64,000 nucleotides of DNA from an uncultured Acidimicrobiia bacterium. Lineage in GTDB: Bacteria; Actinomycetota; Acidimicrobiia; Acidimicrobiales; SZUA-35. A model generated the notes under the pieces. The model was not told where the DNA came from. It made no database searches and saw only the letters and a list, made by a program, of their open reading frames with translations. The DNA is taken from positions 4,739 to 68,738 of the forward strand of contig CBESNA010000001.1 of the NCBI GenBank assembly GCA_965530755.1, read 5' to 3'. Of this stretch, positions 9,026-63,935 are shown piece after piece. Position 1 is the stretch's first letter, and each line of letters opens with the position of its first letter. A program made the position numbers and the translations under genes.

Positions 9026-9031
9026 CCAGTC

Positions 9032-10558: not shown

Positions 10559-10561
10559 TGG

Positions 10562-12115: not shown

Positions 12116-12128
12116 AGTTATCGCTTTC

Positions 12129-14372: not shown

Positions 14373-14375
14373 GGA

Positions 14376-14675: not shown

Positions 14676-14683
14676 GCCGACTC

Positions 14684-15193
14684 CTAATCCCGCCTGGCCA
14701 CGACGATGGCACCGATCAGCGCTGCGAGCAGTAGCAGCGAAATCGCTTCGAACGGGACGATGTAGGTACTGAAGATCGAATCTGCGACTTCTTGGGTGCG
14801 CTGCACCCGACGATCGGCCGGCAGCTTCTGGGTACCCCACTGGTCGACGACCGCGTAGGTCATCACGGCGAACATCACGACAGCGACGAGGCCACCGATC
14901 CACTTCTGTTCGTAGTCGAGGTTGTCCTCGTGGCCGATCTGGGCCCGGGTGAGCATGACGCCGAACAGCAACAGGACCATGATGGCGCCCACGTAGACGA
15001 GCAACTGGGTGGCAGCCGCGAATTCGGCGCCGAGGACGATGTAGGTCGCAGCGACGCTGACCAGCACCACCAGCAGATGGAGCGCAGCGTGGACCACGTT
15101 CTTCGTGGAGACCATCCGCAGTGCACTGACCACGGCCACAGCCGCGATCACGTAGAAGAAGGCGTTGGCCACCCACTCCTCGGTGTCGGTCAT
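14684..15193 (-). CDS. nuoJ: NADH-quinone oxidoreductase subunit J (cluster 1)
   Basis: Typical NuoJ N-terminus after ATG 15193 (MTDTEEWVANAFFYVIAAVAVVSALRMV). An alternative GTG at 15238 would make a GTGA overlap with the nuoI stop. Confidence 0.85.
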   Translation of the reverse strand: MTDTEEWVANAFFYVIAAVAVVSALRMVSTKNVVHAALHLLVVLVSVAATYIVLGAEFAAATQLLVYVGAIMVLLLFGVMLTRAQIGHEDNLDYEQKWIGGLVAVVMFAVMTYAVVDQWGTQKLPADRRVQRTQEVADSIFSTYIVPFEAISLLLLAALIGAIVVARRD

Positions 15194-15234
15194 CACCGAT
15201 GCTTCGGCCGCGAACGTGGCCAACGATGCTCCGA

Positions 15235-15735
15235 TCACCGAGGCACCTGCTTTGCCTTCACTTCGGAGCCAGCTTCGTAGGCCTCGAAGTCGGGCACGGT
15301 TTCCATCCACTGGCCGAGCCGGCTCTTGTCGTGGAGGAGATCAGCGATCTTCGGTTCGGAGTATTCGTACTCTGGGCTCCAGAACAGGGCCTCGAACGGG
15401 CACACCTCGACGCAGATCCCGCAGTACATGCAGAGGCTGTAGTCGATGTCGAACCGGTCGAGCTTGTTGACCGAGCGTGGCTTGCCGCCGGCTCGACGGG
15501 GTGGCGCGAGGGTTTTGTGTCCCTCGATGTAGATGCACCAATCGGGGCACTCGCGGGCGCACAACATGCACGACGTGCAGTTCTCTTCGTGGAGGGCGAT
15601 GACGCCGCGGGCTCGGGGTGCGGGCTCTTCCTTTTCGTGCGGGTACTGCACGGTCTCGGCGCCGTGGACGACGGTCTTGACGACCTCTTTGAAGGTCAGA
15701 CCGAGCCCTTTGACCACACCTGGTACGAGTGGCAT
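15235..15735 (-). CDS. nuoI: NADH-quinone oxidoreductase subunit I (cluster 1), 2x[4Fe-4S]
   Basis: CTSCMLCARECP and CMYCGICVEVCP motifs. Confidence 0.92.
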   Translation of the reverse strand: MPLVPGVVKGLGLTFKEVVKTVVHGAETVQYPHEKEEPAPRARGVIALHEENCTSCMLCARECPDWCIYIEGHKTLAPPRRAGGKPRSVNKLDRFDIDYSLCMYCGICVEVCPFEALFWSPEYEYSEPKIADLLHDKSRLGQWMETVPDFEAYEAGSEVKAKQVPR

Positions 15736-15844
15736 CAGTCTCCCCTTCCGTCCGTCATGCGGCCGACAGTCTGGCCCAGCCAGGCGACGATCACACAGTT
15801 CGCTCTGACACAGTTCGCGTCACCGGAAGGGTTGCGGCCGGCCA

Positions 15845-16894
15845 TCAGAGCCACACCTTCAGCACACCGGTGATCGCGATATTGACGAGGGAGATGGGAA
15901 TGAGCACCTTCCAGGCGAACTTCTGGAGCTGATCTTCACGGAATCGGGGGTAGGTGAACCGCACCCAGTAGATGACGAAGGTCAACACCAGCATCTTGGT
16001 GACCATGACCAACGGTCCGATCACGTTGAACCAGTTCGAGTCGTACTCGAGGCCGAGCAGATCAGTGACGAATGGCGGGATGCTCCAGCCTCCGAGGAAG
16101 AGCACGGAAGCCAAGAAGGCGAAGATCGCGGCCGTGGCGAACTCGCCGATGAAGAACATCAGGAAGCGCATGCCCGAGTACTCCGTCATGTAGCCCGAGA
16201 CCAGCTCGGACTCGGCGATCGGCATGTCGAACGGCACCTGCGTGAGCTCGGCTTGCACTGCGACCATGAAGATCAGGAACCCGACGAACTGCGTGAGGAT
16301 GAACGGGAGTCCCAGTCCGCCCCAACCGAAGATCTCACCATTGATCTGGGCGTAGACGATCTGCTGCAGATTCAGCGTGCCGGCCTGGATGACAACGCCG
16401 ACGACCGCCAGCACCATCGGCAACTCGTAGGCAATGAGCTGTCCGGCGGCGCGCAGGCCACCGAGCAGCGAGTACTTCGAGGCGCTCGCCCAGCCGGCCA
16501 TGAGGATGCCGATCACCGAGATCGAGCTGACGGCAAGAGCAAAGAACACGCCCGTGTCGAGGTCGGTGAAGACGGCGTTCGGGCCGAACGGCACGACCAC
16601 CGCCAGCAAGAACGTGCTCAACAGCACGATGTAGGGCGCCATGGCGAACACGTTGCGGTCGGCCTTCGCAGGGAAGATGTCTTCCTTCTGCAACGACTTG
16701 CCCACTTCGGCCAGGAGCTGGAGCGAGCCGTACGGCCCGGCTTCCATCGGGCCCAGACGGCTCTGCATGAACGAGACCATCTTGAACAAGTACAGGTACA
16801 CGGTCAGGCCGGCGGGAAGCAGCACGACGAGCAGCACCATGACGCTCTTGAGGATGGTCTCCATCCACCACGACGTTTCGATCGCAAGCATCAT
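15845..16894 (-). CDS. nuoH: NADH-quinone oxidoreductase subunit H (cluster 1)
   Basis: NuoH/ND1 motifs (MQSRLGPMEAGPYGSLQLLAEVGKSLQKEDIFP). 8-TM protein. Confidence 0.92.
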   Translation of the reverse strand: MMLAIETSWWMETILKSVMVLLVVLLPAGLTVYLYLFKMVSFMQSRLGPMEAGPYGSLQLLAEVGKSLQKEDIFPAKADRNVFAMAPYIVLLSTFLLAVVVPFGPNAVFTDLDTGVFFALAVSSISVIGILMAGWASASKYSLLGGLRAAGQLIAYELPMVLAVVGVVIQAGTLNLQQIVYAQINGEIFGWGGLGLPFILTQFVGFLIFMVAVQAELTQVPFDMPIAESELVSGYMTEYSGMRFLMFFIGEFATAAIFAFLASVLFLGGWSIPPFVTDLLGLEYDSNWFNVIGPLVMVTKMLVLTFVIYWVRFTYPRFREDQLQKFAWKVLIPISLVNIAITGVLKVWL

Positions 16895-16915
16895 CGGGCC
16901 ACCACTCCTGACGAA

Positions 16916-17037
16916 TCGGCTGGGAGTTGTGAGCCCCAGCGAGCAACTCCGTTAGTGAGCGAAGCGAACGGCGTGCCTTCGGCTGGGAGTTGTGAGCCCC
17001 AGCGAGCAACTCCGTTAGTGAGCGAAGCGAACGGCGT
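16916..17037. repeat. Tandem direct repeat, 2 x 59 bp with a 63-bp period, filling the nuoD-nuoH spacer of cluster 1
   Basis: TCGGCTGGGAGTTGTGAGCCCCAGCGAGCAACTCCGTTAGTGAGCGAAGCGAACGGCGT occurs at 16916-16974 and again, identical by eye, at 16979-17037. Each unit holds two overlapping alternative inverted repeats: GGAGTTG-N14-CAACTCC and GCTGGG-N10-CCCAGC. Confidence 0.9.
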
Positions 17038-18209
17038 CATCGGTCAATGTCTCCGAGGATGAAGTAGAGCGAGGCGAGGATGGTGATCACATCCGGGACG
17101 TAGGTGCCCTTGAGCAGCCAGGGGGCGATGCTCATGTTGTTGAAGCTGGCCGAGCGGATCTTCACCCGGAACGGCTCGAGGCCGCCCTTCGACACGACGT
17201 AGTAACCCATCTCACCGAGCGGGTTTTCGGTGGCGACGTAGGCCTCGCCCTCTGGCACTTTGATGATGCGGGGCACCTTGGCCATGATCGGACCGGACGG
17301 GATCGTGTCGAGCAACTGCTCGACGATCGAAACACTCTCACGAACCTCTTGCAGCCGAACCCACGATCGGGCATAGGCGTCGCCGTCCGGGTGAGTCCAG
17401 ACCTTCCAATCGACCTTGTCCCATGCCAGACCGCACGGATTGTCGCGACGCAGGTCCCAATCGACGCCCGACCCGCGGATGTTGGCACCGCTCAACCCGT
17501 AGCTGAGCCCGACGTCTGCCGGGATGACACCGATGCCTCGGGTACGAGCGGCGAAGATCTCGTTGCCGAACAGCAGATCCTCGATCAGGTCGCAGAAGTC
17601 CGAGATCTTGGTCAGGCTCTGCTTGGTCTCGGCGATCCACCCGGCCGGGAAATCATCCTTGACCCCGCCGATGCGATCGAAGTTGGGATGGAAGCGGCCG
17701 CCCGTCGCTGACTCGATCTGATTGAGCACGTGCTCGCGGTCGCGGAACGCGTAGAACACGGGGGTGACAGCACCGAGCTGGACTCCGAGATCGCCGAGGA
17801 ACAGCGTGAGGTGCGCGATGCGGCCGAGCTCGAACAGAATCGTCCGAATGTGCTGGGCCCGAGGCGGCGCCTCTATGTCCATGAGCTGCTCTGCGGCGAG
17901 GATGAAGGGCACCTCGTTGCAGAAGCTTCCGAGCCAGTCGATCCGGTTCACCAGCGTGGTGACCTGAGGGTAGGTCCGCACCTCCGTGAGCTTCTCGTAG
18001 CCCCGGTGCATGTAACCCATGATCGGCTCTGCCTCGATCACCTGCTCACCGTCGAGCCGGGCGACGATGCGGAGCGTGCCGTGGGTCGCCGGGTGCTGTG
18101 GACCGATGTTGAGGGTCATGCCCTCCGCTTCGAGTTCGAGATTGACTCGGGCGTCGGCAGCCTGGGCGGCCACGTATGCCAGCTGACGGCGATCGGACAC
18201 TGCGGTCAT
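17037..18209 (-). CDS. nuoD: NADH-quinone oxidoreductase subunit D (cluster 1)
   Basis: NIGPQHPATHGTLRIV motif. ATG 18209 has GGAG 7 nt upstream. The ORF-track ATG at 18278 has no spaced RBS and overlaps nuoC by 11 nt, but remains possible. Confidence 0.88.
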   Translation of the reverse strand: MTAVSDRRQLAYVAAQAADARVNLELEAEGMTLNIGPQHPATHGTLRIVARLDGEQVIEAEPIMGYMHRGYEKLTEVRTYPQVTTLVNRIDWLGSFCNEVPFILAAEQLMDIEAPPRAQHIRTILFELGRIAHLTLFLGDLGVQLGAVTPVFYAFRDREHVLNQIESATGGRFHPNFDRIGGVKDDFPAGWIAETKQSLTKISDFCDLIEDLLFGNEIFAARTRGIGVIPADVGLSYGLSGANIRGSGVDWDLRRDNPCGLAWDKVDWKVWTHPDGDAYARSWVRLQEVRESVSIVEQLLDTIPSGPIMAKVPRIIKVPEGEAYVATENPLGEMGYYVVSKGGLEPFRVKIRSASFNNMSIAPWLLKGTYVPDVITILASLYFILGDIDR

Positions 18210-18267
18210 GACGCGGCTCCGCTGTCGTGGGCGTTCCCGCCGGATCCGAGCAGAATCATCAGTTGCG

Positions 18268-18981
18268 TCATGACGCATCCTCGGGGTTGGTCGTACTCGG
18301 CGCAGCGCTGTCCGCGAGTTCCGGCGTCGGGGGAGCTTCGTCAGCGAGCGGTGGCATTGGCTCGACGTCGACGATGCCGGGCCATGGCTTCACCAAACGA
18401 GCCAACAGGGGGAAGTCTTTCCGCATCGGATGACCCTCGAAGTCGCCGGGCAGGTACAGAGGGCGGAGACCCGGGTGACCGGTGAAGGTGATGCCGAACA
18501 TCTCCCACACCTCACGCTCGTGCCAGTTGGCACCGGGGTAGTGATCGGTCCAGGTGGGCGCAGCCATGTCGTCGCCGACGTCGGCCTTCAACGTGACGCC
18601 GATCCCAGTCGCGAGGTTGGCAACACGCGCAATGATCTGGAACCGAGTGTCGCCGCCGGCGTAGCCCGTGGTCATCGGCTCGATTTCGGATGCCTCGGAC
18701 TCATCCAAGACCGTGTCGACAGCAGCATCGAGGCTGCGACCGTAGGGAGAGGGCATCCAGTCGATCGCCGACACGAAGTCGAAGAAACGGAACCGCTGCC
18801 GGTCGCGCAAGTACGCCGCCGTGTCGGCAAACGCCTCGATCTTCACCCGGATCCAGAGATCGACCCCAGGAACCAGATGATGCTCGACGAGGGAGTCGCC
18901 GAGCTCGGCCACCATCGCCTCGAGCAGGGCGGAACGAGCTTCGTCGACCACGACATCCGTGGTCTCCACGATGTCGGTCAT
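18268..18981 (-). CDS. nuoC: NADH-quinone oxidoreductase subunit C (cluster 1), with a Pro/Ala-rich C-terminal tail
   Basis: NuoC core (FDFVSAIDW, HYPGANWHEREVWEMFGITFTGHP). Confidence 0.9.
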   Translation of the reverse strand: MTDIVETTDVVVDEARSALLEAMVAELGDSLVEHHLVPGVDLWIRVKIEAFADTAAYLRDRQRFRFFDFVSAIDWMPSPYGRSLDAAVDTVLDESEASEIEPMTTGYAGGDTRFQIIARVANLATGIGVTLKADVGDDMAAPTWTDHYPGANWHEREVWEMFGITFTGHPGLRPLYLPGDFEGHPMRKDFPLLARLVKPWPGIVDVEPMPPLADEAPPTPELADSAAPSTTNPEDAS

Positions 18982-19056
18982 GCGCCGATCTCTCTGCTGT
19001 CGAAGATCATCATGCGCCGATCTCTCTGCTGTCGAAGATCATCATGCGCCGATCTC
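18979..19056. repeat. Tandem direct repeat, 32-bp unit x about 2.4, at the nuoB/nuoC junction of cluster 1
   Basis: CATGCGCCGATCTCTCTGCTGTCGAAGATCAT occurs at 18979-19010 and 19011-19042, and its first 14 nt recur at 19043-19056. On the minus strand this reiterates the nuoB 3' end GAGATCGGCGCATGA three times. Confidence 0.9.
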
Positions 19057-19545
19057 CATGGGATCGCCCTTCCACTTCTCGACCATGTCCTCGTTCTGGA
19101 TGATGTCCTGGAGCAGCACGATGCCCTCCAGCAGCGCCTCGGGGCGGGGCGGGCAGCCAGGGACGTACACATCGACGGGAATGATCTGGTCGATGCCCTT
19201 GGTGACCGAGTAACTATCCCAATAGGGGCCGCCGCAGTTCGCACACGACCCCATCGAGATCACATACTTGGGCTCGGGCATCTGCTCGTACAGACGGCGA
19301 ATGGCCGGAGCCATCTTGTCGGTGACCGTCCCGGACACGACGACGAGGTCGGCCTGACGTGGGCTGGCGGGCAGCGGAATCACGCCGAGGCGCATCACGT
19401 CGTAGCGCGGCGATCCGAACGCTGCACCCATCTCGATGGCGCAGCACGCCAGGCCCCACTGGTACACCCAGAGGCTGTACTTGCGACTTGTGTTCAGCAA
19501 TGTGGTGAGTGCCTTGGGCATCTTGCCCGAGTCAACGAGACCCAT
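19042..19545 (-). CDS. nuoB: NADH-quinone oxidoreductase subunit B (cluster 1)
   Basis: N2-cluster ligands are present ([25 protein letters not shown]). Confidence 0.92.
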
Positions 19546-19596
19546 ACCTGGTTCCCCGAATCAATGGTGAGCGTGTGTTGGCCGGACCGTGAACGG

Positions 19597-19962
19597 TCAA
19601 ACCCAGCGAAGGACACCCTTGCGCCAGGCGTACGCCAGACCAAGAGCAAGAATGAAGATGAAGATCACCATCTCCACCAATCCGAAGAGGCCGTACGCCT
19701 CGAGGCGGGTCGCCCACGGAAAGATGAAGACGGCCTCGACGTCGAACATGACGAAGAGCAGAGCAAAGATGTAGTAGCGGATCTGACTCTGGGACCATCC
19801 GGTGCCCACAGGATCGACGCCACTCTCATAGTTCTCGATCTTGGCTTCGGTCGGACGATTCGGGCGTATGAAACTGGAAAGCCCGATGAACGTGCCGACG
19901 AGCAGCACGGCGATGCCGCCGAAGAGAGCGACGATGGCGTAGTCACGGAGGAAGTCCGACAC
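19597..19962 (-). CDS. nuoA: NADH-quinone oxidoreductase subunit A (cluster 1)
   Basis: 3-TM NuoA with KIENYESG and FDVEAVFIFPW. A GTG 19962 start gives a typical 121 aa, but the start is uncertain. The ORF-track start at 20049 is a TTG with no RBS, 3 nt after the glgB stop. Confidence 0.8.
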   Translation of the reverse strand: MSDFLRDYAIVALFGGIAVLLVGTFIGLSSFIRPNRPTEAKIENYESGVDPVGTGWSQSQIRYYIFALLFVMFDVEAVFIFPWATRLEAYGLFGLVEMVIFIFILALGLAYAWRKGVLRWV

Positions 19963-20052
19963 GGGGAGCGATGCTAGCCCTCTGGAGAGGCATCGGCCAA
20001 GATCTTCAGCGGTTTCTCGTATCCGACGTCGCCTGGGCGCCGACCCCAATCG

Positions 20053-21954
20053 TCAGCGGGTGGGAGCGAGAGCGATCACAGCGAGCGGTGGCAGGTCGAC
20101 GACCAACGACTGCTCGCGGCCGTGACTCCCCGTATCGTCGCTGCTGAGCGTCGTCGCGGCGAATGCTCCGCTCCCTCCGAAGTCCGGATCGTCGCTGTTC
20201 AACAGCACTTCCCACTGGCCCGATACGGGCACACCGACTCGGTAGCCGGACCGAGGCACCGGAGTGAGGTTCTGGACGCACAACACGGGTCGGTCGTCGT
20301 CGAGGCCGAGTCGCAGCCACACGAGCACCGAATTCGCGCCGTCATCGAGCACCACCCACTCGAAACCAGACGGATCGAGCTCGTTGCGGTGCATCGCCGG
20401 CTCGTTGCGGTAAACGTCGTTGAGCTTTGCAACCCAGCGTTGGACGCCGAGATGGTTCGGCAGCTCCAGTTGCGCCCAGGCCAGCGGATGGTCGTGGTTC
20501 CACTCCGGTCCTTGCCCGAACTCCTGGCCCATGAACAGCAGCTTCTTACCCGGATTCAGCCACTGGTTTCCGAACAACACACGCAGATTGGCGAACTGTT
20601 GCCACTCGTCGCCCGGCATCTTGGCCAGGATCGAGCCCTTGCCGTGCACGACCTCGTCATGACTGAGCGGAAGCACGTACTGCTCGGTGAACGCGTAGAC
20701 GCCACGGAACGTGATCTCGTTGTGGTGGAACCGGCGGTGGATGGGATCGCGCTCGAGATACTCGAGCGTGTCGTGCATCCAGCCCATGTCCCACTTGTAG
20801 TGGAACCCAAGACCGCCTTCATCGGCCGGCCGGGTGACACCGGGAAATGCCGTGGACTCCTCGGCGATGGTGATGACGTCCGGATGTTCGACACCGATCG
20901 CGGTGTTGAGATCTCGAAGGAAGTGAATCGCCTCGAGATTCTCCCGACCGCCGTACTGGTTGGGCACCCACGCACCCGACTCCCGGGAGTAGTCGCGGTA
21001 CAGCATCGAGGCGACGGCATCGACCCGGATCCCGTCGATGTGATAGCGCTCGATCCAGTGGAGAGCACTGCTAATCAGGAAGGACCGCACCTCGTGCCGG
21101 CCGAAGTTGAAGATGTAGCTCTTCCAGTCTGGGTGCCAGCCCTCCTTGGGATCGCCGTGTTCGTAGAGGTGGGATCCGTCGAAACTGCCGAGAGCGAAAT
21201 CGTCTGACGGGAAGTGCGACGGCACCCAATCGAGGATCACGCCGATCCCGCGCTCGTGGAGCTTGTCGACGAAGCCCATGAAGTCCGTCGGAAGGCCGTA
21301 GCGCGCGGTCGGAGCGAAGTAGCCGGTGGTCTGATAGCCCCAGGACCCGTAGAACGGGTGCTCCATGATGGGCAGCAACTCGACGTGGGTGAAGCCGCAC
21401 GCGTCGAGATGATCGGCCAACGGCTCCGCCAACTCCGCCCAGGTCAGGCTGCGGTATGCCTCGGCGTGGCGCCAGGACCCGACGTGCATCTCGTAGATCG
21501 AGATCGGTCGATCATGGCCCTGGTGCTCGGATCGAGCGTCGATCCAGTCGCTGTCTGACCAATCGTAGGAGAGGTCGGTGACGACCGACGCCGTCGCCGG
21601 TGGGAGCTCGGCGGCGAACGCCAACGGGTCGGCCCGCTCCACGTCGTAGCCGGCCTTGGTGGTGATCCGGAACTTGTATCGATCACCGACGGTGGCATCG
21701 GAGGCCACGCCGGCCCAGATGCCCGAGTCGCCCTGCGGAACGAGTTGGTACTTGTCGTTGACTTCCCAATTCGAGAAGTCACCGACAGCCCAGACCCGAG
21801 TTGCCTCGGGCGCCCAAACCGCGAAGCGGCGGCCCGGCTGGTCTGCGACGGTCAGGGCCTGTGCGCCGAGCACATCGAACAACCGACGGTGGCCGCCCTC
21901 GTTGAACAGCCAACGATCGCCCTCGGGGATCAGATCATTGAGGTCGAGAGTCAT
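20053..21954 (-). CDS. glgB: 1,4-alpha-glucan branching enzyme (GH13)
   Basis: GH13 branching-enzyme motifs (IDGIRVDAVASMLY, GFHYKWDMGWMHD, LPLSHDEVVHGKGS). Confidence 0.9.
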   Translation of the reverse strand: MTLDLNDLIPEGDRWLFNEGGHRRLFDVLGAQALTVADQPGRRFAVWAPEATRVWAVGDFSNWEVNDKYQLVPQGDSGIWAGVASDATVGDRYKFRITTKAGYDVERADPLAFAAELPPATASVVTDLSYDWSDSDWIDARSEHQGHDRPISIYEMHVGSWRHAEAYRSLTWAELAEPLADHLDACGFTHVELLPIMEHPFYGSWGYQTTGYFAPTARYGLPTDFMGFVDKLHERGIGVILDWVPSHFPSDDFALGSFDGSHLYEHGDPKEGWHPDWKSYIFNFGRHEVRSFLISSALHWIERYHIDGIRVDAVASMLYRDYSRESGAWVPNQYGGRENLEAIHFLRDLNTAIGVEHPDVITIAEESTAFPGVTRPADEGGLGFHYKWDMGWMHDTLEYLERDPIHRRFHHNEITFRGVYAFTEQYVLPLSHDEVVHGKGSILAKMPGDEWQQFANLRVLFGNQWLNPGKKLLFMGQEFGQGPEWNHDHPLAWAQLELPNHLGVQRWVAKLNDVYRNEPAMHRNELDPSGFEWVVLDDGANSVLVWLRLGLDDDRPVLCVQNLTPVPRSGYRVGVPVSGQWEVLLNSDDPDFGGSGAFAATTLSSDDTGSHGREQSLVVDLPPLAVIALAPTR

Positions 21955-22847
21955 GCCGAGCCGTCCTCGGGCAGGCGGATGTCGAGGCCGAAGAGCTCCG
22001 AGAATTGCTCGCGATATTCAACGTCGTCGGCGATGGCACCGAGTGCGACCCAATCCTCGTCCGGCACGGTGTCGAGTGCAGTCGTGAGGGCGTTGGCCCC
22101 CCAGCCGCAGGTCCAGCGAAGTTTGGGTTCGTCCGTGGTGACGGCTTCGTAGATCGTCTCGGCGACGACCGATGGGTGCCCGGGATCGGCGAGCCCAACC
22201 ATGTAGAAGTCGAGGAGGCGCTGGTAGTGGCGGTCATAGGCCCCGCTCTCGTTCGGGGCGTCGACGTTCTTGGCCATGATGGCCGTCTTGATGACGCCGG
22301 GCTCGACGATCGCCACTCTGATCCCGAACGGCGCCACCTCGTGTGCCAGTTCCTGACTCATCCCTTCGGCCGCCCACTTCGATGCAACGTACGGCGCCTG
22401 GGCGGAGGCGGCGAAGCGGCCGATGACCGAAGTGACGTTGACGATCGACCCGCTCCCCTGCTCACGCATGTGAGGAAGCACCGCCTGGATGCAGCGGACC
22501 AGACCATGCAGATTGACGTCCATGACCTCGGCGAAACGGTCGATGGCGCATTCCTCGACGGTGGCGTTCCCACCGACTCCGGCGTTGTTGACCAACACGT
22601 CGATTCGGCCGGCCTCGGCGTGGATCTGCGCCACGGCTGCGTTCACCGAGTCGGTGTCGGTGACGTCGCACACGACTGGATGGACCGTGACGCCGGCGGC
22701 CTGGGCCATGGCGTCGAGCTTGGCCGACTTGTCGAGCGAGCGCATCGTGCCGTAGACGGTCCAGCCCTTGGCCGCGAGGTCGACAGCGGCGCTCCGACCG
22801 ATTCCCGAGTTGCTTCCGGTGACGATGGCGACCAGTGATTCAGACAT
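21951..22847 (-). CDS. Short-chain dehydrogenase/reductase (classical SDR)
   Basis: TGSNSGIGRS cofactor motif, NNAG, and catalytic YVASK. ATGA stop/start overlap with glgB. Confidence 0.85.
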   Translation of the reverse strand: MSESLVAIVTGSNSGIGRSAAVDLAAKGWTVYGTMRSLDKSAKLDAMAQAAGVTVHPVVCDVTDTDSVNAAVAQIHAEAGRIDVLVNNAGVGGNATVEECAIDRFAEVMDVNLHGLVRCIQAVLPHMREQGSGSIVNVTSVIGRFAASAQAPYVASKWAAEGMSQELAHEVAPFGIRVAIVEPGVIKTAIMAKNVDAPNESGAYDRHYQRLLDFYMVGLADPGHPSVVAETIYEAVTTDEPKLRWTCGWGANALTTALDTVPDEDWVALGAIADDVEYREQFSELFGLDIRLPEDGSA

Positions 22848-22955
22848 GGGCGCCGACCCTACTCTGCACGAACGATCGACTCATCTCGAACCGTTGCTCA
22901 GTCTTCGGCTCGGTGTCGGGCGCCGACATCGTCGGCACCCGAGCAACACTGGCGC

Positions 22956-25049: not shown

Positions 25050-25817
25050 ATGAGCAACTCACTCCGGATTGCCGAGATCGCCGACCGTGCGGGCATCTCG
25101 ACCGCGACGGTCCGCTACTACGAACGCATCGGCGTGCTCCCCATACCGGAGCGTTCGGCCGACGGGTATCGGATGTATGACGCCCACACGGTCGAACGAC
25201 TCGAGTTCATCGGTCGAGCCAAACAGCTCGGTTGCTCCCTCGACGAGGTCACGGATCTCGCCCAAGCCTGGGAAGGCGGCGAATGCGGACCAATCCAGGA
25301 TCGGCTCCGCACCCTGGTGTCCGACAAGCTCGCCGCCGCCCAGACCGAGATCGTCGAGTTGGTCACACTGACCGCAGACCTGCGTCGGGCTGCTGCAGCG
25401 TTGGGAGGCCATCGTCCGGTCGGCCGATGCGACGATACGTGCGGCTGCACCTTCAACAATCGTGCCGAAGCGCTGCCGGTGCCGATCGCGTTCACCGAGC
25501 GACCAGCCACCGCTGACACACCGATCACGTGCACCCTCGACGCGGGGCAGATGCCCGACCGCATCGTCGAATGGAACACGCTCGTCGGATTCGGTACCGA
25601 CCGTGTGACTCGTACTGCGATCGCCGGCGGAGTTCGGCTCCACTTTCGCGACACTGTGGACGTCGCCGAGATCGCCCGCCTGGCGACCGCGGAACAGAAC
25701 TGCTGCCAGTTCTTCACGTTCCGCATCGCCATCGACCAGCACGGTGTGGCGCTCGAGGTCACAGCGTCAGGAGATGCAATCGACATCGTCCATACCGCGT
25801 TCGAAGCACCCGCATGA
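25050..25817 (+). CDS. MerR family transcriptional regulator with a Cys-containing C-terminal domain
   Basis: N-terminal MerR HTH (LRIAEIADRAGISTATVRYYERIGVLP). Divergent from ynfA. Confidence 0.85.
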   Translation: MSNSLRIAEIADRAGISTATVRYYERIGVLPIPERSADGYRMYDAHTVERLEFIGRAKQLGCSLDEVTDLAQAWEGGECGPIQDRLRTLVSDKLAAAQTEIVELVTLTADLRRAAAALGGHRPVGRCDDTCGCTFNNRAEALPVPIAFTERPATADTPITCTLDAGQMPDRIVEWNTLVGFGTDRVTRTAIAGGVRLHFRDTVDVAEIARLATAEQNCCQFFTFRIAIDQHGVALEVTASGDAIDIVHTAFEAPA

Positions 25818-55645: not shown

Positions 55646-56901
55646 GAGAGGTCGAAGAGCTCCCGCACCGACTCGACGAGACGGTCACCTCTCCGCGACC
55701 CTCCTGCGTCCTTGAGAGTCGCTGACGGCGGGTGAAGCAACTTCTTGACCAGACCACGAGTGAGGGCATCGACCGCTGCGGCTTGCTCTCCACTGAGGCT
55801 GTCGAGACGCTTGTCGAACCGGGCAATCTCGTCTGATCGAACCGAATCGGCCCAGCGGTGGAGGCTGCCGAGGAGCGGATCGACCTCGGCCGCACCGGCC
55901 GACCGTTGGAAGAGCGCCATCTGGTCTTCCATCACCGAGCGGGCGGCGGAGACTTCCTTCTGGCGTTCCTCGAGGCCGCGGTTGGCGAAGGCCTGCAAGT
56001 CGGACAGCACCATCAGATCGACATCGTCGAAGGCCATCACGCCAGGATCGACGTCGCGAGGCACAGCGAGGTCGAGGATGAGAAGGCGACGGCCGCTGGC
56101 ATCAAGCGCGGCGCGGACCGTCGCTGCGTCGAGCACCACACCGGGAGCCCCGGTGGCGCTGACCACGACGTCGGCCGATGCGACTGCTGCTGTCAGATCA
56201 TGGAAGGGCACCACATCCGCCCCGATCGGGGCGGCGATCTCAGCGGCACGGTCAGCGGTGCGATTGGTGACCGACACCAGCGCCGAAGCTGTCTTCGCCA
56301 GCGCACCGGCGACACCAGCACCCACTTCGCCGGCGCCGATGAGCAACACACGGCGTCCGGCGAGATCACCGAGACGTTCGGTGACGAGGGAGACGGCTGC
56401 GTGGGAGATCGATGCGGTCCGTCGCCCGATGGCGGTCTCGGTCCGCACCCGCTTGCCGGCGATCACGGCGTTCTCGAACAACGGATTCAGCAGTGGCCCG
56501 GCGGTTCCCTCGATGCGGGCCCGCTCCCACGCGGTCCGGATCTGGCCGAGGATCTCGTGCTCGCCGAGGACGGCCGAGTCGAGTCCGGCAGACACCGAGA
56601 AGAGATGGTCGACCGCCTCGCCATCAAAATGCACGTAGAGATGATCGACGAACGTCGACGAGTCGACACCGACGATCAGGCTCAGGGCCTCCCTGACATC
56701 TCGGTAGGCATCGTGGAAGCGTTCGGCGTGGACATAGACCTCGGTGCGGTTGCACGTCGAGAGCAACACGACCTCGTTCACCACGGGGCTCGACGCGATC
56801 TCGCTGAGCGCCTTGGGCACCACGTCGGCGGGGAGACTCATCAGCTCGAGCACGCCGATGGGGGCAGAGCGATGGTTCAGCCCGATGGCGATGACGGTCA
56901 T
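55642..56901 (-). CDS. hemA: Glutamyl-tRNA reductase
   Basis: ATG 56901 with a GAGGAG RBS. IGLNHRSAPIGVLE and LSTCNRTEVY (catalytic Cys) motifs. The upstream 56 codons of the ORF-track entry were rejected. Confidence 0.92.
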   Translation of the reverse strand: MTVIAIGLNHRSAPIGVLELMSLPADVVPKALSEIASSPVVNEVVLLSTCNRTEVYVHAERFHDAYRDVREALSLIVGVDSSTFVDHLYVHFDGEAVDHLFSVSAGLDSAVLGEHEILGQIRTAWERARIEGTAGPLLNPLFENAVIAGKRVRTETAIGRRTASISHAAVSLVTERLGDLAGRRVLLIGAGEVGAGVAGALAKTASALVSVTNRTADRAAEIAAPIGADVVPFHDLTAAVASADVVVSATGAPGVVLDAATVRAALDASGRRLLILDLAVPRDVDPGVMAFDDVDLMVLSDLQAFANRGLEERQKEVSAARSVMEDQMALFQRSAGAAEVDPLLGSLHRWADSVRSDEIARFDKRLDSLSGEQAAAVDALTRGLVKKLLHPPSATLKDAGGSRRGDRLVESVRELFDLS

Positions 56902-57004
56902 GAGTCTCCTCGACGATGATTCGAGCGGGAACCTTTGGTCGCCGAACGCGACCATTGTCGCAGTTCTGACGGCGTCTGCACCACTCCGGCGCGGGTGGAA
57001 CCCG

Positions 57005-57715
57005 TCACGCGACGATTCCGGTCTCTTGGGCCGGCTCGGTTCGACGGCGAGCAATCGGCACGCCGACACCGTTGCGGGCGCTGTTCGCCCGTTGTTGATA
57101 GAAGCTCAGGATCTGGAGTTCGGTCGCCAGATCAACCCGCCGGACCTCGACATCCTCGGCGGTCTGAACCGACGTCGCGGTGAAGTTGAGCAGCGAGGTG
57201 ACCCCCGCCGCAGCGAGAATGTCGGCCGCCGACTGCGCTCCTTCGGGTGGGGTCGCCAGCACGGCGACGGCGAGATGCTCGCGGGCAACCACAGTCGCAG
57301 CGTCATCGATGTGCTCGACGAGAATGCCGCTGACCGAGGATCCGACGACGTCAGGATCGACGTCGAGCAAGGCTCGAACGGGGAAGCCACGATCACCCAG
57401 ACCGGAGTAGTTGGCGAGTGCTCGACCGAGGTTGCCGACGCCGACGATCACGACCGGCCAGTCCTGATTGAGCCCGAGCGAGCCGCTGATCTCGAACACG
57501 AGATACTTCGTGTCGTAACCGACGCCTCGGGTTCCCGTGATCTCGAGCGACGCGAGATCTCGGCGCAGCGTGGCCGGATTGACACCGACGAGCTGGGCCA
57601 ATCGGTCGGACGAGATCGTGGATTCGCCATCCTTCGCCGCATCGACCACGCACTGGAGGTACTGCGGGAGCCGAGCCACGGTGGCTTCGGAGACTCGTCC
57701 GCTGGGAACCATCAT
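57005..57715 (-). CDS. rex: Redox-sensing transcriptional repressor Rex
   Basis: Winged-helix N-terminus (ATVARLPQYLQCV, SSDRLAQLVGVNPATLRRDL) and NAD(H) Rossmann motif VVIVGVGNLGRALANY. Positioned upstream of hemA as in Streptomyces rex-hemACD. Confidence 0.9.
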   Translation of the reverse strand: MMVPSGRVSEATVARLPQYLQCVVDAAKDGESTISSDRLAQLVGVNPATLRRDLASLEITGTRGVGYDTKYLVFEISGSLGLNQDWPVVIVGVGNLGRALANYSGLGDRGFPVRALLDVDPDVVGSSVSGILVEHIDDAATVVAREHLAVAVLATPPEGAQSAADILAAAGVTSLLNFTATSVQTAEDVEVRRVDLATELQILSFYQQRANSARNGVGVPIARRRTEPAQETGIVA

Positions 57716-57793
57716 GCGAGGCTAGACAGCAGTTTTCACAAATGCACGAAGCAAGGTGGACGTGCTCGTGGGCGCCGCACACAAGTGGCTCGC

Positions 57794-58780
57794 TCAATTC
57801 CCGCTGGTGCCATGATCCCCGAGCCCCGCGGAGGCTGCCGAGGTGAACACGATCCGGCGGGGCACCTTGGGCGCCTCGAGCCGCTCCAAGCAGAACTCGA
57901 TCAACTCGCGCTCGAGGATCGGCCGCTCGCCGACGGTCGGCAGCTTCGTTGCGGCAACGTACGCGACCAGCCGTTCCCCCGTCGTCGCGTCCGGCTCACC
58001 GACCACCGAAACCGCTTCGACGATCGAGTGAGCCCCCAGCACGCGTTCGACCTCGGAAGCCGAGACCTCGAGCCCGGACACGACGATCACGTCGTCGGGG
58101 CCGTCGGCGGTGCGTTCCCGTGCCGGCGCGTTGTCGACGAGGATCGTGGCCCCGATTGCCAGACCTGCGTGGAGAACGTCGAGCCCGGACGAATCATGCA
58201 GCGGCCCGATGCCGAGCACGACCGGCTCGTCGCCGGCCGACTCGACCAGTCTCGAGGTCATGGCATCAATGGTTGCCGCAACCTCGCCATGGGTCCGGGC
58301 CACACGCAACGCACCGATCGACAGAACGGCAGGATGGTCATCGTCGACGTCGGTGCCGGGGACCCATCCGTGGTCGAGCAACGCCAGACGATCTGCGGCG
58401 GAGGCGAAGACGTGCTTGGTTCCAGTCAGGTCGGGTCTCGAATCGGCCCAGGCGGATGCAGCGACCGCATCAGCGATCACGGCGGCCGGGTGGTAGTCGT
58501 CGACGAGACGAGCGATCTCCTTGCGAGTGGTCTGCGGATCCAAAGGCATCGAGACCAAGCCGGCAGTGACGCAGGCCAGATGGAAGACCACACTGAGGTC
58601 GGTGTTGTCGCCGATGAGCAGCACGTGATCGCCCACCTCGAGACCGGCGGCGACCAGGCCACCGCGCACGGCGCCGACCATTTCACCGAGTGCTCCGTAA
58701 GAGACCTGCCCACCACCATCGGTGATCAGTGCGACCCGCTCGTCGGCGATGACCGGAAATCGACGGGCGAGGTTGGTCAT
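57794..58780 (-). CDS. Truncated/degenerate adenylate-forming (ANL/acyl-CoA synthetase-like) family protein
   Basis: 328 aa. The N-terminal region resembles AMP-binding enzymes (VSYGALGEMV...GDHVLLIGDNTDLSVVFHLAC) and the C-terminal lid region is present (VSGLEVSASEVERVL...VVGEPDATTGERLVAYV). The T[SG]GTTG P-loop is replaced by LSIGALRVARTHG and most of the core is missing. Confidence 0.55.
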   Translation of the reverse strand: MTNLARRFPVIADERVALITDGGGQVSYGALGEMVGAVRGGLVAAGLEVGDHVLLIGDNTDLSVVFHLACVTAGLVSMPLDPQTTRKEIARLVDDYHPAAVIADAVAASAWADSRPDLTGTKHVFASAADRLALLDHGWVPGTDVDDDHPAVLSIGALRVARTHGEVAATIDAMTSRLVESAGDEPVVLGIGPLHDSSGLDVLHAGLAIGATILVDNAPARERTADGPDDVIVVSGLEVSASEVERVLGAHSIVEAVSVVGEPDATTGERLVAYVAATKLPTVGERPILERELIEFCLERLEAPKVPRRIVFTSAASAGLGDHGTSGN

Positions 58781-58935
58781 GTGAGATCGGGAGCGTCGAG
58801 TTCGATCACGATCAGTCCGGATTCGGTATCCGGATCGCCGTCGCCGCTTGGGGCCAGCACCACGAACTGGAGCGCAGCGGCGCCGAGGATCGCGAGGAGT
58901 AGTACGGCGATGGCGAGCACGACGCCGGGTCTCAT
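58777..58935 (-). CDS. 52-aa single-pass membrane peptide (below the ORF-track size cutoff)
   Basis: My translation: MRPGVVLAIAVLLLAILGAAALQFVVLAPSGDGDPDTESGLIVIELDAPDLT*. ATGA overlaps both the upstream stop (58932-58935) and the downstream start (58777-58780). Confidence 0.55.
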   Translation of the reverse strand: MRPGVVLAIAVLLLAILGAAALQFVVLAPSGDGDPDTESGLIVIELDAPDLT

Positions 58936-59834
58936 GAGATCTCCAAAGGATCGATGACCGGGGGAACCGTGGTCGGTTTCTGCCCGAGCGTGACCGCTGT
59001 CGAGCCCACGGCGGTTCTGCCGGTGGCGGGCCGGAGCGTGAGCGCATCTCCTTCGTTGATCTCGAGTTCGAACGCAGCCGATCCCCGGTCGACCGCGATC
59101 GACAGGAGACCGTAGGAATCCACGAGCAGCCCGACACTGCCCGTCGAGATCTCGGCAAAGGCCTGCACTCTCTGCGCCGTTCGGGTGGTTCGGCCACCCT
59201 CGATGGAGACGTGTTCCGGCCAGGACGCCAGGTCGGCGGGATCGACGTTGAGCTGGGCGTTTCCGAACCGGTCGACCCAGAGCACCTCGGCCTTGATCGA
59301 GCCGTCTTCTGACTGTTCGCTGACGGCCAGCACGCCGGGAAGCAGGCGCATCGGATCGATCGGGGTGCCCAGATCGCGCATCGGCACACCACGACAGAGA
59401 TGGGCGGCGGCCGGAGCGAAGACATCTCGACCGTCGAAGGTGGGGCCGGGCGCGGGAAGGTGGAATTCCGGATTGTCGAGAACGACGGCGTCGGTTGCTC
59501 CGCCGACGAGCGACACGGCCGGAGCGAAGAGGCCGTTGTCCGGACCGACGAGGTAGCTCTGGCCGTCACCGACCTCGATCACGATCGCCTTTCTGGCCGT
59601 GGCGACTCCGGGATCCACGACGCCAAGGACCACCCCGGGGGCGAGGTACTGCGCAGCCCGCGCCAGAGCGAGGCCGCCGGCGCGAACGTCGTGCGGCTCG
59701 ATGTCGTGCGTGATGTCGATGACGGTGACACCCGGGGTCATCGTGCGAATCACTGACTTGACGACGCCGACGAACTCATCGCTCAAGCCGTAGTCGGTGA
59801 GAAACGAGATCGTGTCGAATCGGAGGGACGTCAT
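58932..59834 (-). CDS. SAM hydroxide adenosyltransferase / SAM-dependent halogenase family (DUF62) protein
   Basis: N-terminal family signature ISFLTDYGLSDEFVGVVKSVI...IDITHDI and VVDPGVAT. ATGA overlap with proC. Confidence 0.75.
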   Translation of the reverse strand: MTSLRFDTISFLTDYGLSDEFVGVVKSVIRTMTPGVTVIDITHDIEPHDVRAGGLALARAAQYLAPGVVLGVVDPGVATARKAIVIEVGDGQSYLVGPDNGLFAPAVSLVGGATDAVVLDNPEFHLPAPGPTFDGRDVFAPAAAHLCRGVPMRDLGTPIDPMRLLPGVLAVSEQSEDGSIKAEVLWVDRFGNAQLNVDPADLASWPEHVSIEGGRTTRTAQRVQAFAEISTGSVGLLVDSYGLLSIAVDRGSAAFELEINEGDALTLRPATGRTAVGSTAVTLGQKPTTVPPVIDPLEIS

Positions 59835-60755: not shown

Positions 60756-61220
60756 TCAAGGGAACTTGGATGCATACCCGATACGCAGAGCCGGCCGGAA
60801 GTACTGCTCGACCCAGGCGTACAGAGATCCGAGGACTCGGTCCAACTCGTCCTCGCGCATGACCAGTTCGTTGTCGAGCGCACCTCGAAGGAAGATGGCG
60901 TTCTCTTCACCGACGGCGAACGCGGCGCCGAACAGTTGGAGGTTTCGCTTGAGGAGATGGGCGTAGAACTCCGTGTGGTTTTCCTCCGGCGCCGGCATCA
61001 CGTACGTCTCGTATTGGAGCGTTCGCTGCTGGAGATGGAATCGGATCGTGAAGACGTCCTTCTCTTCACCTCGCACGCGGATGAACCAGCGCCGGGACCC
61101 CGGCTGGTCGCGATCCACGGCTGCGAGCACCGGGTTCTCGGCCAGTTGCCTGGCCAGCCAGTCATCGATGAATGCCTCGAGCTCGTCGAGGTCTGCGTTC
61201 GATCGAGGTCGGGGCATCAC
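60756..61220 (-). CDS. Conserved actinobacterial protein adjacent to mshA (YbjN-like, tentative)
   Basis: 154-aa soluble protein. Its position downstream of mshA mirrors the mycobacterial mshA neighbour. Family assignment is from memory only. Confidence 0.5.
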   Translation of the reverse strand: MMPRPRSNADLDELEAFIDDWLARQLAENPVLAAVDRDQPGSRRWFIRVRGEEKDVFTIRFHLQQRTLQYETYVMPAPEENHTEFYAHLLKRNLQLFGAAFAVGEENAIFLRGALDNELVMREDELDRVLGSLYAWVEQYFRPALRIGYASKFP

Positions 61221-61238: not shown

Positions 61239-62507
61239 TCAGCGAGTGCTGAGGTCGGAACCGAGCGTGTCGATCTCGATCGTGGGTTCCGCACACGGAG
61301 AGAGCGGTCCTCGCGTCAGATCTTCGTAGAGACGGCGAAGGCGTGCCGCCGATGTCGACCACGTGTAGTTGCGGGCCATCGCCGCAGCCGACACGGACAA
61401 CCTCCGGGCGAGCACCGGATCGGCGAGGATCGCATCGACCCACGCCGCATAGTCCCGAGCGTTCCTGGACTCGACCAGATAGCCGGTGTGACCGTGTTCG
61501 ACCAGCGTCAGAAGTCCGCCGACAGCCGAGGCAACCACGGGGACACCACATGCGGCCGACTCGAGGGCAACGAGCCCAAATGACTCCGATCGGCTCGGAA
61601 TGAGCACGACATCGGCGGCGCGGTAGTAGGTGGACAGGAGGTGGTGAGGGATCGGCGGCTTGAACTCGACTCGATCCCGGACCCCGAGCTCGTCGATCAG
61701 CGCGTGAATGCGATCAACCTCCTCGTCGCCTTGGCTTCCGGACGCTCCCCCGACGATCCAGAGCCTGGCGTCCTTGCGTTCGATGGCGGCGAGGGTCTCG
61801 ACCGCGACGTCGACGCCTTTGAGAGGTTGGATCCGGCCTACGAACAACAGCAGGGGGCGATCGTCTGTGTTGACAGCCCATCGGGCGCCGCCCTGATGTC
61901 CGGGAGAGAAGAACGCGTGGTCGACTCCCGGCGGAACGACCTCGATCCGCTCAGCGTCGGCATTGTAGAACTGCACGAGCTGCTCGGCCTCGGGGATGCA
62001 GTTTGCCAAGACGGCATCTGCGCACGCCATGACGCCGGCCTCGGCCTCGGCCCGCCGCTCTGGCTCGGGGTCGCCGCTCTCCGCCTTGACCCGGGCCAAC
62101 GTGTGGAACGTCGTGACGAGCGGCAGGTCGACCATGCGCTTGAGGGCCTGGCCGGCGACACCGGACAGCCAGTAGTTGGCGTGGATGATGTCTGGACGGA
62201 ACGACGTGAAGTCCTCCGCCACCCAGGAAGCGAACGGGCCGACGAGCTCCTCGAGCTGCTCCTTCGAGGCGTCGACTGGTCCGACCGGCACGTGAACAAC
62301 CTCGAACCCGGGCTCGACCTCGACGACTTCGTCGAGATCGTCGGCCCATCGCCGGACGTACACACGGCACTGCAGGCCGGCCTGCGCCATGGCCGACACG
62401 AACTCACGCACGTAGACGTTCATCCCCCCACCGTCGCCGGTGCCGGGCTGCACCAAGGGAGAGGTGTGCAGCGAAAGGACGGCGACTCGACGCACAAAGC
62501 GGCTCAC
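61239..62507 (-). CDS. mshA: D-inositol-3-phosphate glycosyltransferase (mycothiol biosynthesis)
   Basis: GT4 enzyme with the MshA N-terminus (VAVLSLHTSPLVQPGTGDGGGMNVYV) and a C-terminal E-x7-E region (SESFGLVALESAACG). Confidence 0.9.
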   Translation of the reverse strand: MSRFVRRVAVLSLHTSPLVQPGTGDGGGMNVYVREFVSAMAQAGLQCRVYVRRWADDLDEVVEVEPGFEVVHVPVGPVDASKEQLEELVGPFASWVAEDFTSFRPDIIHANYWLSGVAGQALKRMVDLPLVTTFHTLARVKAESGDPEPERRAEAEAGVMACADAVLANCIPEAEQLVQFYNADAERIEVVPPGVDHAFFSPGHQGGARWAVNTDDRPLLLFVGRIQPLKGVDVAVETLAAIERKDARLWIVGGASGSQGDEEVDRIHALIDELGVRDRVEFKPPIPHHLLSTYYRAADVVLIPSRSESFGLVALESAACGVPVVASAVGGLLTLVEHGHTGYLVESRNARDYAAWVDAILADPVLARRLSVSAAAMARNYTWSTSAARLRRLYEDLTRGPLSPCAEPTIEIDTLGSDLSTR

Positions 62508-62537: not shown

Positions 62538-62918
62538 TCAATCGTCCTTGCCGGCATCGGGCTCGGTACTGGCCGTGATGAAGCTTCGGTAGACCCCGAT
62601 CAACGCCTTCTTCTGGTCGGCGTTGAGCTCGGGAGCACGCCGGATCGTCTCCTCGACGTCGCTCGAATGGGTCACTGCGCTCTCGTCGAGGATGCCCGCT
62701 CGGATGTACAACGTCTCGGACGAGATCTCGAGCGCCTTTGCGATCTGTTGAAGAATCTCGGCCGACGGCTTCCTCAAGCCCCGTTCGATCTGGCTCAGGT
62801 ACGGGTTGGAGACTCCGGCGAGTTCCGCGAGGCGACGCACGGACAGTTCGGCGATGCGGCGCTGCTCACGGATGAAGACTCCGAGATCCAACGGATTGCT
62901 GTTCGCCGACTTCGCCAT
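62538..62918 (-). CDS. XRE-family helix-turn-helix transcriptional regulator
   Basis: HTH_3-type motif SVRRLAELAGVSNPYLSQIERGLRKPSAEIL. The start lies 3 nt after the upstream RsiG-like stop. Confidence 0.85.
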   Translation of the reverse strand: MAKSANSNPLDLGVFIREQRRIAELSVRRLAELAGVSNPYLSQIERGLRKPSAEILQQIAKALEISSETLYIRAGILDESAVTHSSDVEETIRRAPELNADQKKALIGVYRSFITASTEPDAGKDD

Positions 62919-62921
62919 CGC

Positions 62922-63458
62922 TCAGCTCCCAAGCCCTTCGATCGATGCCTCGCCGTCGCGATAGCGACGTCCGATCTCGTTCTGCACGGCGTCGATCCTG
63001 TCGTGGAGTTGGCGCCGGAGGTCGGACAGCTCCTGCTCCATTCCCTCGACCCGCTTGAAGACCTCGAGCAGTCGATCGTCATCGAGCTCCCCAACGCCCG
63101 AGAGTTCCCTCGGCGAGATGACCGAATCGAGTCGAGTCCCGAGCGTGGCGGCCACCGGGCCCGGCTCGTTGATCTCAACAGCGCGTCCAGACGGCGCGCC
63201 AGTTTCCGACGCATCGGCCATGATGTCAGGGAGGTCGTAGAGCAGGTTGTTGAGCTGACCCGGATCGCCGTCGCCGGCCCGGCGCTGGACCTCGTGACCG
63301 ATGATGTCAAGCCGACCCTGGGCAACGCGGCGAACCATCGACACGTCACCTTCGACCCGATTCGCGTCGTACCGGAAGCTGCGAAGCTCCGTGATGGGCC
63401 GAGTACCGATGTTGGCGAGAGCGTCGTCGGCGAGGAGGGTGGCGAGAGGGTCAGTCAC
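62922..63458 (-). CDS. RsiG-like protein with two c-di-GMP-binding-type helix motifs
   Basis: Motif 1, EGDVSMVRRVAQGRLD, fits E-x3-S-x2-R-x3-Q-x3-D exactly (residues 36-51). Motif 2, EQELSDLRRQLHDRID, fits with H in place of Q (residues 141-156). 178 aa and predicted helical. Confidence 0.65.
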   Translation of the reverse strand: MTDPLATLLADDALANIGTRPITELRSFRYDANRVEGDVSMVRRVAQGRLDIIGHEVQRRAGDGDPGQLNNLLYDLPDIMADASETGAPSGRAVEINEPGPVAATLGTRLDSVISPRELSGVGELDDDRLLEVFKRVEGMEQELSDLRRQLHDRIDAVQNEIGRRYRDGEASIEGLGS

Positions 63459-63515
63459 TGGCCAGAGGCTACCGGCACCAACAGCGCGGCAAGCCAGCCG
63501 AGTGAAAGGGAGCGG

Positions 63516-63935
63516 TCAGACGCGCGGCATGAGCAACAACCACAGCGGCGCTGCGAAGAGGTAACTATCGAGGCGGCGAAGCGCCGGCGCCCACACGGCG
63601 CCGCGAGGCAACACCGCGGACGCAGCGATCTGGCCGAGCGGCGCGGCCACCGCCGTGAGCAGCGCGAACAGCGGGAAGCTGTTCGTGTCGAACGGCGCCG
63701 GCAGCACGAGATAGATGGCGGCGGCGGCGACGGCGAGGGCAACGATTCCGGCCACGGGACCCTCGACTGCGTTCGCCGACCCCGTCCCGATCACAAAGTC
63801 ACCGACCTCGTAGGCGGAGACCATGACCACGATGGCCACGAAGCCGCCGAAGTCGAGTCGCTCGATGGCCACGATGGAACCGGCTGCGACACCGGCGGGC
63901 AGCGCCGATCGAATCAGGAGTTCACCGCGGTGCAA
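63516..63935 (-). CDS. Hydrophobic membrane protein, function unknown
   Basis: 139 aa from a TTG start, about 4 hydrophobic segments, no family recognised. Upstream of the RsiG-like gene on the same strand. Confidence 0.45.
   Translation of the reverse strand: MHRGELLIRSALPAGVAAGSIVAIERLDFGGFVAIVVMVSAYEVGDFVIGTGSANAVEGPVAGIVALAVAAAAIYLVLPAPFDTNSFPLFALLTAVAAPLGQIAASAVLPRGAVWAPALRRLDSYLFAAPLWLLLMPRV

Follow-up and report, generated by a model that had tools for sequence, protein, structure and literature searches.

Does the RsiG-like protein encoded in this 64-kb stretch of Acidimicrobiia DNA (the window) control the helix-turn-helix regulator encoded directly after it, or a sigma factor encoded elsewhere? 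A previous reading made from the sequence alone (the sequence-only reading) had proposed the first, with c-di-GMP as the signal, and kept the second as a fallback. The question concerns the following two genes.

62922-63458, minus strand: rsiG, 178 aa, GTG start, stop codon TGA at 62922-62924
62538-62918, minus strand: XRE-family helix-turn-helix regulator, 126 aa, ATG at 62916-62918, Pfam HTH_3 and HTH_31

The assignment of the 178-aa protein to the RsiG family is borne out by a Pfam HMM, by a sequence match to a solved structure and by the predicted fold. Two stretches match Pfam PF22802 (RsiG), for a score of 82.3 bits where the cutoff is 27 (E = 1.9e-23). RsiG/AmfC from S. venezuelae (PDB 6pfj_T) aligns end to end, over residues 8-176, with E = 6e-17, and the single-motif RsiGs of Rubrobacter give a weaker sequence match than the 6PFJ protein. 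An AF2 model computed with 63 homologues as input reached a pLDDT of 85.7. It shows the long antiparallel alpha-1/alpha-5 coiled coil of the RsiG fold, the short bracing helices and the connecting loop. The two long helices, 22-60 and 127-168, bear the motifs; the short helices span residues 66-85, 101-113 and 116-120, and loop 86-100 is of low confidence. A Foldseek search of the PDB with this model returned the four RsiG chains of 6PFV/6PFJ as sole significant matches (TM 0.59-0.70, probability 1.0; next match E = 0.65).

The protein is thus a canonical, monomeric twin-motif RsiG. It belongs to the Acidimicrobiales twin-motif group already catalogued in PMC8325347, where such proteins were found in 3/4 genomes of this order (Ilumatobacter coccineus YM304_37910, Acidithrix ferrooxidans AXFE_25810 and Ferrithrix thermotolerans). 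Taken alone, it is one more RsiG in a family already published for Acidimicrobiales, and matters little. The closest genome is the MAG "uncultured Acidimicrobiia bacterium MFD03551.bin.2.99", whose RsiG is 94% identical. Eight homologues (P0159, P0160, P0170, P0190, P0218, P0236, P0251 and P0264) are annotated as 270-340-aa proteins fused to a Peptidase_S26 (SodX-like) or ThiS domain. At locus L088 (4134-5540), sodN (minus strand), sodX and rsiG are separate, adjacent genes; the fusion calls may therefore be gene-calling run-ons rather than true domain fusions.

Both c-di-GMP motifs that had been read in the protein, of the form E-x3-S-x2-R-x3-[Q/H]-x3-D, are present.

63306-63353, minus strand: motif 1 on helix alpha-1, EGDVSMVRRVAQGRLD, residues 36-51 (E36, S40, R43, Q47, D51)
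62991-63038, minus strand: motif 2 on helix alpha-5, EQELSDLRRQLHDRID, residues 141-156 (E141, S145, R148, H152, D156)

A six-frame scan of the whole 64-kb window for E-x3-S-x2-R-x3-[QH]-x3-D gave exactly two matches, both in rsiG; shuffled windows averaged 0.06 matches and never had more than 1. The contact residues described in PMC7005675 were mapped onto an alignment of Acidimicrobiia and Streptomyces RsiGs. Motif 1 aligns with S. venezuelae E64/S68/R71/Q75/D79, and none of the five positions varies among 50 Acidimicrobiia and 13 Streptomyces sequences. Motif 2 aligns with E162/S166/R169/Q173/D177. Nine of the ten motif residues are identical to those of S. venezuelae RsiG; the tenth is Q173, replaced by H152. 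R92, the counterpart of the S. venezuelae loop arginine R115 that stacks on c-di-GMP, is invariant.

The sequence-only reading suspected that the Q-to-H change in motif 2 alters nucleotide binding. This does not hold. Histidine often replaces the motif glutamine in RsiGs, a variation described in motif 1 only, and the RsiG from C. woesei, with histidine at the motif Q position, binds c-di-GMP with a Kd of 25 uM (PMC8325347). Moreover, histidine occupies the motif-2 position in 50/50 Acidimicrobiia homologues. The change is not a defect and is a small extension of the known variation. In a wider homologue alignment, this position is H, F or Q in other lineages. Phenylalanine at the position equivalent to residue 152 was seen outside the Acidimicrobiia clade in P0165, P0188, P0210, P0222, P0240 and P0266. 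That the motif-2 histidine is invariant in Acidimicrobiia, with phenylalanine there in other lineages, is a modest new observation. With these ligand residues, the window RsiG would be expected to bind c-di-GMP.

An enzyme predicted to make the ligand is encoded in the same window.

7007-9025, plus strand: GAF-GGDEF diguanylate cyclase, start uncertain (the ORF reaches up to 6098)

The cyclase with an intact active site noted from the letters alone was recovered: the GGEEF sequence is intact, and Pfam recognizes GAF and GGDEF domains (E = 2e-38). An I-site of the RxxD type, RPMD, lies five residues upstream of GGEEF. Judged by its coding sequence, this gene shows that the organism should be able to make c-di-GMP. 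Elsewhere in the window, a nuo operon is suggested at about 9000-22900 (Pfam Oxidored_q3 at 14684-15310, Oxidored_q6 at 19042-19545), and a MerR-family regulator is found at 25050-25817. Two long ORFs overlap on opposite strands, 56744-58957 (plus) and 57794-59569 (minus). In the close relative L001, a 339-aa AMP-binding enzyme at the syntenic position is called in the rsiG strand orientation, which makes the 737-aa ORF on the plus strand a probable high-GC shadow ORF.

Which sigma factor, if any, could such an RsiG hold? On the sigma-4 side, the S. venezuelae contacts R54/R57/I183/Y187 correspond to R26/R29/I162/Y166 in the window protein. The equivalents of R26, R29 and Y166 are invariant in Acidimicrobiia and Streptomyces, and position 162 is isoleucine in 49/50 Acidimicrobiia sequences. 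The sigma-2 pocket residues I80/V95/L99/L143 are I52/L72/L76/V122 in the window protein; the first is invariant, and the remaining three are conservative substitutions. Several further S. venezuelae contacts differ in the window RsiG (Y69 to M, V138 to R, D142 to G, R58 to Y, and loop residues S108/H110/S112). The RsiG-sigma interface must therefore differ in detail from that of S. venezuelae.

The sequence-only reading had remarked that no sigma gene is nearby, and this stands. A tblastn search of the 64-kb window with S. venezuelae WhiG, whose sequence was taken from the PDB alignment, and with E. coli FliA returned nothing below E = 0.3. Such a screen covers sigma factors of the sigma-28 type and other group 1-3 sigmas and would miss ECF sigmas. 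With the same queries, no sigma gene was detected in the ~1 Mb surrounding rsiG at 88 loci, with flanks of 6-10 kb. The 10 kb on either side of rsiG in S. venezuelae are also free of sigma genes, and in that species rsiG (vnz_19430) and whiG (vnz_26215) are far apart and unlinked (PMC7005675). Because rsiG and whiG are unlinked in Streptomyces, and because the 88 loci are sigma-free, the missing neighbour does not mark a variant system. At the genome level, RsiG has been reported to occur always with a WhiG homologue, as seen in 673 genomes, with a correlation to the WhiG2 clade of r = 0.88 (PMC12871210). We infer WhiG as the partner of the window RsiG.

One could also imagine that WhiG was lost in this lineage, leaving RsiG as a c-di-GMP buffer or as a binder of another partner. 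Neither a sigma-28-type gene nor a WhiG-type promoter was detected in the 64-kb window, as this would predict; matches to TMAA-N15-17-GCCGA and its variants occur there at chance level, so that the promoter count is uninformative. The motif is also absent upstream of rsiG in 80 loci. However, absence cannot be concluded from 64 kb, a small part of a genome. The RsiG residues that contact the sigma factor do not vary among the 50 Acidimicrobiia sequences, and the constant company of WhiG homologues reported for the 673 genomes includes Acidimicrobiales (PMC12871210, PMC8325347). We consider the loss of WhiG very unlikely. A partner sigma encoded elsewhere, which is the norm in S. venezuelae, is a better reading than an XRE partner.

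What, then, is the XRE regulator doing behind rsiG? The 3-nt distance that had been read between the two genes was confirmed, with GCG separating the TGA of rsiG from the ATG of xre. The protein matches Pfam HTH_3 (E = 1.5e-13) and HTH_31 (E = 2.3e-11); in a search of NCBIfam, no model reached its cutoff. Two parts can be distinguished.

62685-62882, minus strand: HTH domain of the XRE protein, residues 13-78
62580-62654, minus strand: conserved C-terminal helix of the XRE protein, residues 89-113

Its orthologues share 60-97% identity, and 43 alignment columns are invariant; the HTH domain is almost invariant and the C-terminal helix is conserved. The protein evolves slowly, keeping ~65% identity where RsiG is down to 37-39%. 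Its AF2 model is of low confidence (pLDDT 66.7, pTM 0.33).

Gene order was compared over 80 species-level Acidimicrobiia loci (L003-L082). Around rsiG and xre, the window itself contains three further genes of the conserved neighbourhood.

61239-62507, minus strand: MshA-like GT4 glycosyltransferase, 422 aa, TIGR03449 mycothiol_MshA with E = 4.5e-112
60756-61220, minus strand: YbjN-family protein, conserved fourth gene of the cluster, 154 aa, Pfam YbjN with E = 7.8e-7
63516-63935, minus strand: 3' part of a conserved upstream gene without Pfam family, start probably beyond the listed TTG

The glycosyltransferase is called MshA-like only, because its TIGR03449 score of 374.9 bits is below the NCBIfam equivalog cutoff of 462.5. 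In relatives, the upstream gene encodes about 282-317 aa and follows thiS. The MAG MFD03551.bin.2.99 shows the order thiS, gene without Pfam family, rsiG, xre and mshA-like, followed by proC, rex and hem genes. Across the 80 loci, the arrangements are as follows.

55/80 loci: rsiG, xre and mshA-like gene in this order on the same strand
19/80 loci: rsiG followed directly by the mshA-like gene (gap of 21-158 nt), with no XRE gene within 6 kb
3/80 loci: XRE gene further downstream
3/80 loci: other arrangements

The XRE adjacency is thus kept well beyond the source genome, and it is a real, lineage-wide feature of gene order. In gene-called loci, rsiG and xre are 2-58 nt apart, and the close XRE orthologues on long contigs lie directly after rsiG (3/3). 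The adjacency is also found in a lineage where RsiG identity is down to about 39%. In more distant lineages, the order is sodA-rsiG-xre-mshA-like at L089 and rsiG-asparaginase-xre at L090, with the XRE gene one position further downstream in the latter; L088 has sodN/sodX-rsiG-mshA-like and no XRE gene. With or without XRE, the mshA-like gene follows rsiG in at least 74/80 loci and is its most constant downstream neighbour; the YbjN gene follows the mshA-like gene in most loci. No XRE gene is present in the 20-kb rsiG locus of S. venezuelae. The surroundings of this c-di-GMP receptor have a thiol/oxidative-stress flavour, with mshA-like and YbjN genes here and sod genes in other lineages. Gene neighbourhoods of RsiG go unmentioned in PMC8325347, where the terms neighbour, synteny and XRE are absent from the text.

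The junctions around rsiG carry two elements relevant to its expression.

63466-63471, minus strand: -10-like hexamer TAGCCT, 7 nt upstream of the rsiG GTG
62926-62930, minus strand: GGGAG, Shine-Dalgarno-like sequence for xre, inside the 3' end of rsiG and 7 nt before the ATG

A TANNNT hexamer is found 6-9 nt (all but one 6-8) before the RsiG start in 68/80 Acidimicrobiia loci. The same test at the other starts gave 11/58 for XRE, 19/77 for MshA-like and 3/68 for YbjN. The hexamer is mostly TACCCT or TAGCCT and often follows GG (63459-63475 in the window; L003-L082). From its position, this element is likely a promoter of the housekeeping-sigma type that would give a leaderless rsiG mRNA. An imperfect 11-nt palindrome, AGTCACTGGCC / GGCCAGAGGCT (82% complementary, 63453-63470), overlaps the rsiG start codon and the stretch that directly follows the -10-like element. 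In a search for operator-like inverted repeats around the starts of rsiG and the mshA-like gene, it was the single match, and a weak one; it may be an operator or have arisen by chance.

Co-transcription of rsiG and xre is supported by the 3-nt gap, by the Shine-Dalgarno-like sequence inside rsiG and by the occurrence of the promoter-like element before rsiG only. As predicted from these elements, rsiG would head a transcription unit running into xre and probably into the mshA-like and ybjN genes. This bears on the view that rsiG and xre are unrelated genes which share no regulation and which inheritance has kept beside the mshA-like gene. In its favour, the most constant neighbour of rsiG is not xre, and the other neighbours vary between lineages (sodN-sodX, sodA, asparaginase, and dtd with an acetyltransferase in Streptomyces). 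However, the arrangement of the junction speaks for co-transcription in this lineage at least, and simple inheritance of the gene order appears rather unlikely to us.

If the genes are expressed together, RsiG loaded with c-di-GMP might control the adjacent XRE repressor, instead of or besides a sigma factor, in a gene order like that of sinI-sinR. The same-strand order in 55/80 loci, its presence in L089 and, one gene removed, in L090, the 3/3 close orthologues and the tight junction all fit such a switch, and the conserved C-terminal helix of the XRE protein could be a protein-contact site. The comparative evidence speaks against a link that is obligate. XRE was placed as probably ancestral on a rough neighbour-joining tree built from RsiG and MshA-like sequences, with ~13 state changes that are mostly losses, and RsiG was retained each time. 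The mean column entropy of RsiG is 1.53 bits with XRE and 1.44 bits without; there are zero fixed differences between the two sets, and two positions are mildly relaxed. Because entropy is alike and no difference became fixed after XRE loss, the selective constraint on RsiG is independent of the neighbouring XRE gene. An XRE regulator missing at a locus may still be encoded elsewhere in that genome. Other points also stand against the switch. The RsiG residues that contact sigma-4 are still invariant, the characterised rsiG of S. venezuelae has no XRE neighbour, and RsiG and XRE gave no BLASTP alignment at E <= 100, unlike SinI and SinR. The lack of a nearby sigma gene is uninformative either way. 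We regard control of the XRE repressor by RsiG as unlikely. Its stronger form, in which XRE takes the place of the sigma factor, was the headline of the sequence-only reading and is unsupported: no sigma gene is found near rsiG in 88 loci, the co-occurrence of RsiG and WhiG is reported to be constant (PMC12871210), and XRE was lost repeatedly.

We therefore favour, as the probable explanation, a canonical c-di-GMP-armed anti-sigma factor for a WhiG2-type sigma encoded elsewhere, with an XRE regulator that is co-transcribed with it but is not its target. The two long antiparallel helices of RsiG would present both motifs to a partly intercalated c-di-GMP dimer. RsiG loaded in this way would sequester the WhiG2-type sigma, and a drop in c-di-GMP would release it. 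The XRE protein would be made alongside RsiG as a separate, dispensable DNA-binding regulator; we take it to be a transcription factor co-expressed with RsiG, whose role may be to regulate the rsiG cluster itself.

Several observations count against this canonical reading. No WhiG gene was detected in the window, or in the closest relative within flanks of 6-10 kb; WhiG-type promoters are at chance level, and several contact residues are substituted. In addition, the XRE adjacency is old, frequent (55/80 loci) and tight, and operon partners are often functionally linked. The rsiG-xre operon of Acidimicrobiia could be a functional module, in which RsiG loaded with c-di-GMP acts directly on XRE besides WhiG, or XRE is the dedicated regulator of the rsiG-mshA-like cluster; we see this as a rather improbable extension. 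If XRE does regulate that cluster, c-di-GMP signalling would be tied to thiol/redox genes (mshA-like here, sod in sister lineages). The conserved rsiG-xre-mshA-like-ybjN cluster, with its leaderless-type promoter, across uncultured Acidimicrobiia is in itself a modest new observation.

Known systems help to place both proteins. In BldD of Streptomyces, the DNA-binding domain is XRE-like, and the C-terminal domain, which carries RXD-X8-RXXD, binds c-di-GMP. Like BldD, the window XRE is an HTH regulator of the XRE type that sits in the c-di-GMP network of an actinobacterium. A c-di-GMP-binding XRE of the BldD type was considered and rejected: RXD-X8-RXXD is missing, the 126 aa contain no RxD triplet, and BldD is not among the PDB matches of the protein at E <= 0.01. 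In Bacillus subtilis SinI-SinR, the gene of a small helical protein precedes that of an XRE repressor, in the same order as rsiG-xre. SinR in the PDB is matched by the HTH domain of the window XRE (E about 2e-6). SinI is homologous to the C-terminal domain of SinR. An antagonist-repressor pair of this type was also rejected. In such a pair, the C-terminal helical-hook domain of the repressor recurs in the antagonist, whereas RsiG and the window XRE have no detectable similarity by BLASTP.

The closest characterised relative is S. venezuelae RsiG (AmfC), the anti-sigma factor of sigma-WhiG (PDB 6PFJ/6PFV; PMC7005675). Its identity to the window protein is about 34-37%. The window RsiG lacks its long N-terminal extension, has H for Q in motif 2 and carries substitutions at several sigma-2 and loop contacts. 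The neighbours differ as well, dtd and an Eis-like acetyltransferase gene in S. venezuelae and xre and the mshA-like gene in the window. Both proteins are nevertheless of the same length class and share the two-motif antiparallel coiled-coil fold, 9/10 motif residues, the loop arginine and the core sigma-4 contacts, and both genes are unlinked to a sigma gene. The Acidimicrobiales RsiGs of PMC8325347 come from the same bacterial class and have the same twin-motif architecture; Q-to-H was noted there in motif 1 only, whereas the window RsiG and its Acidimicrobiia homologues (50/50) carry the histidine in motif 2.
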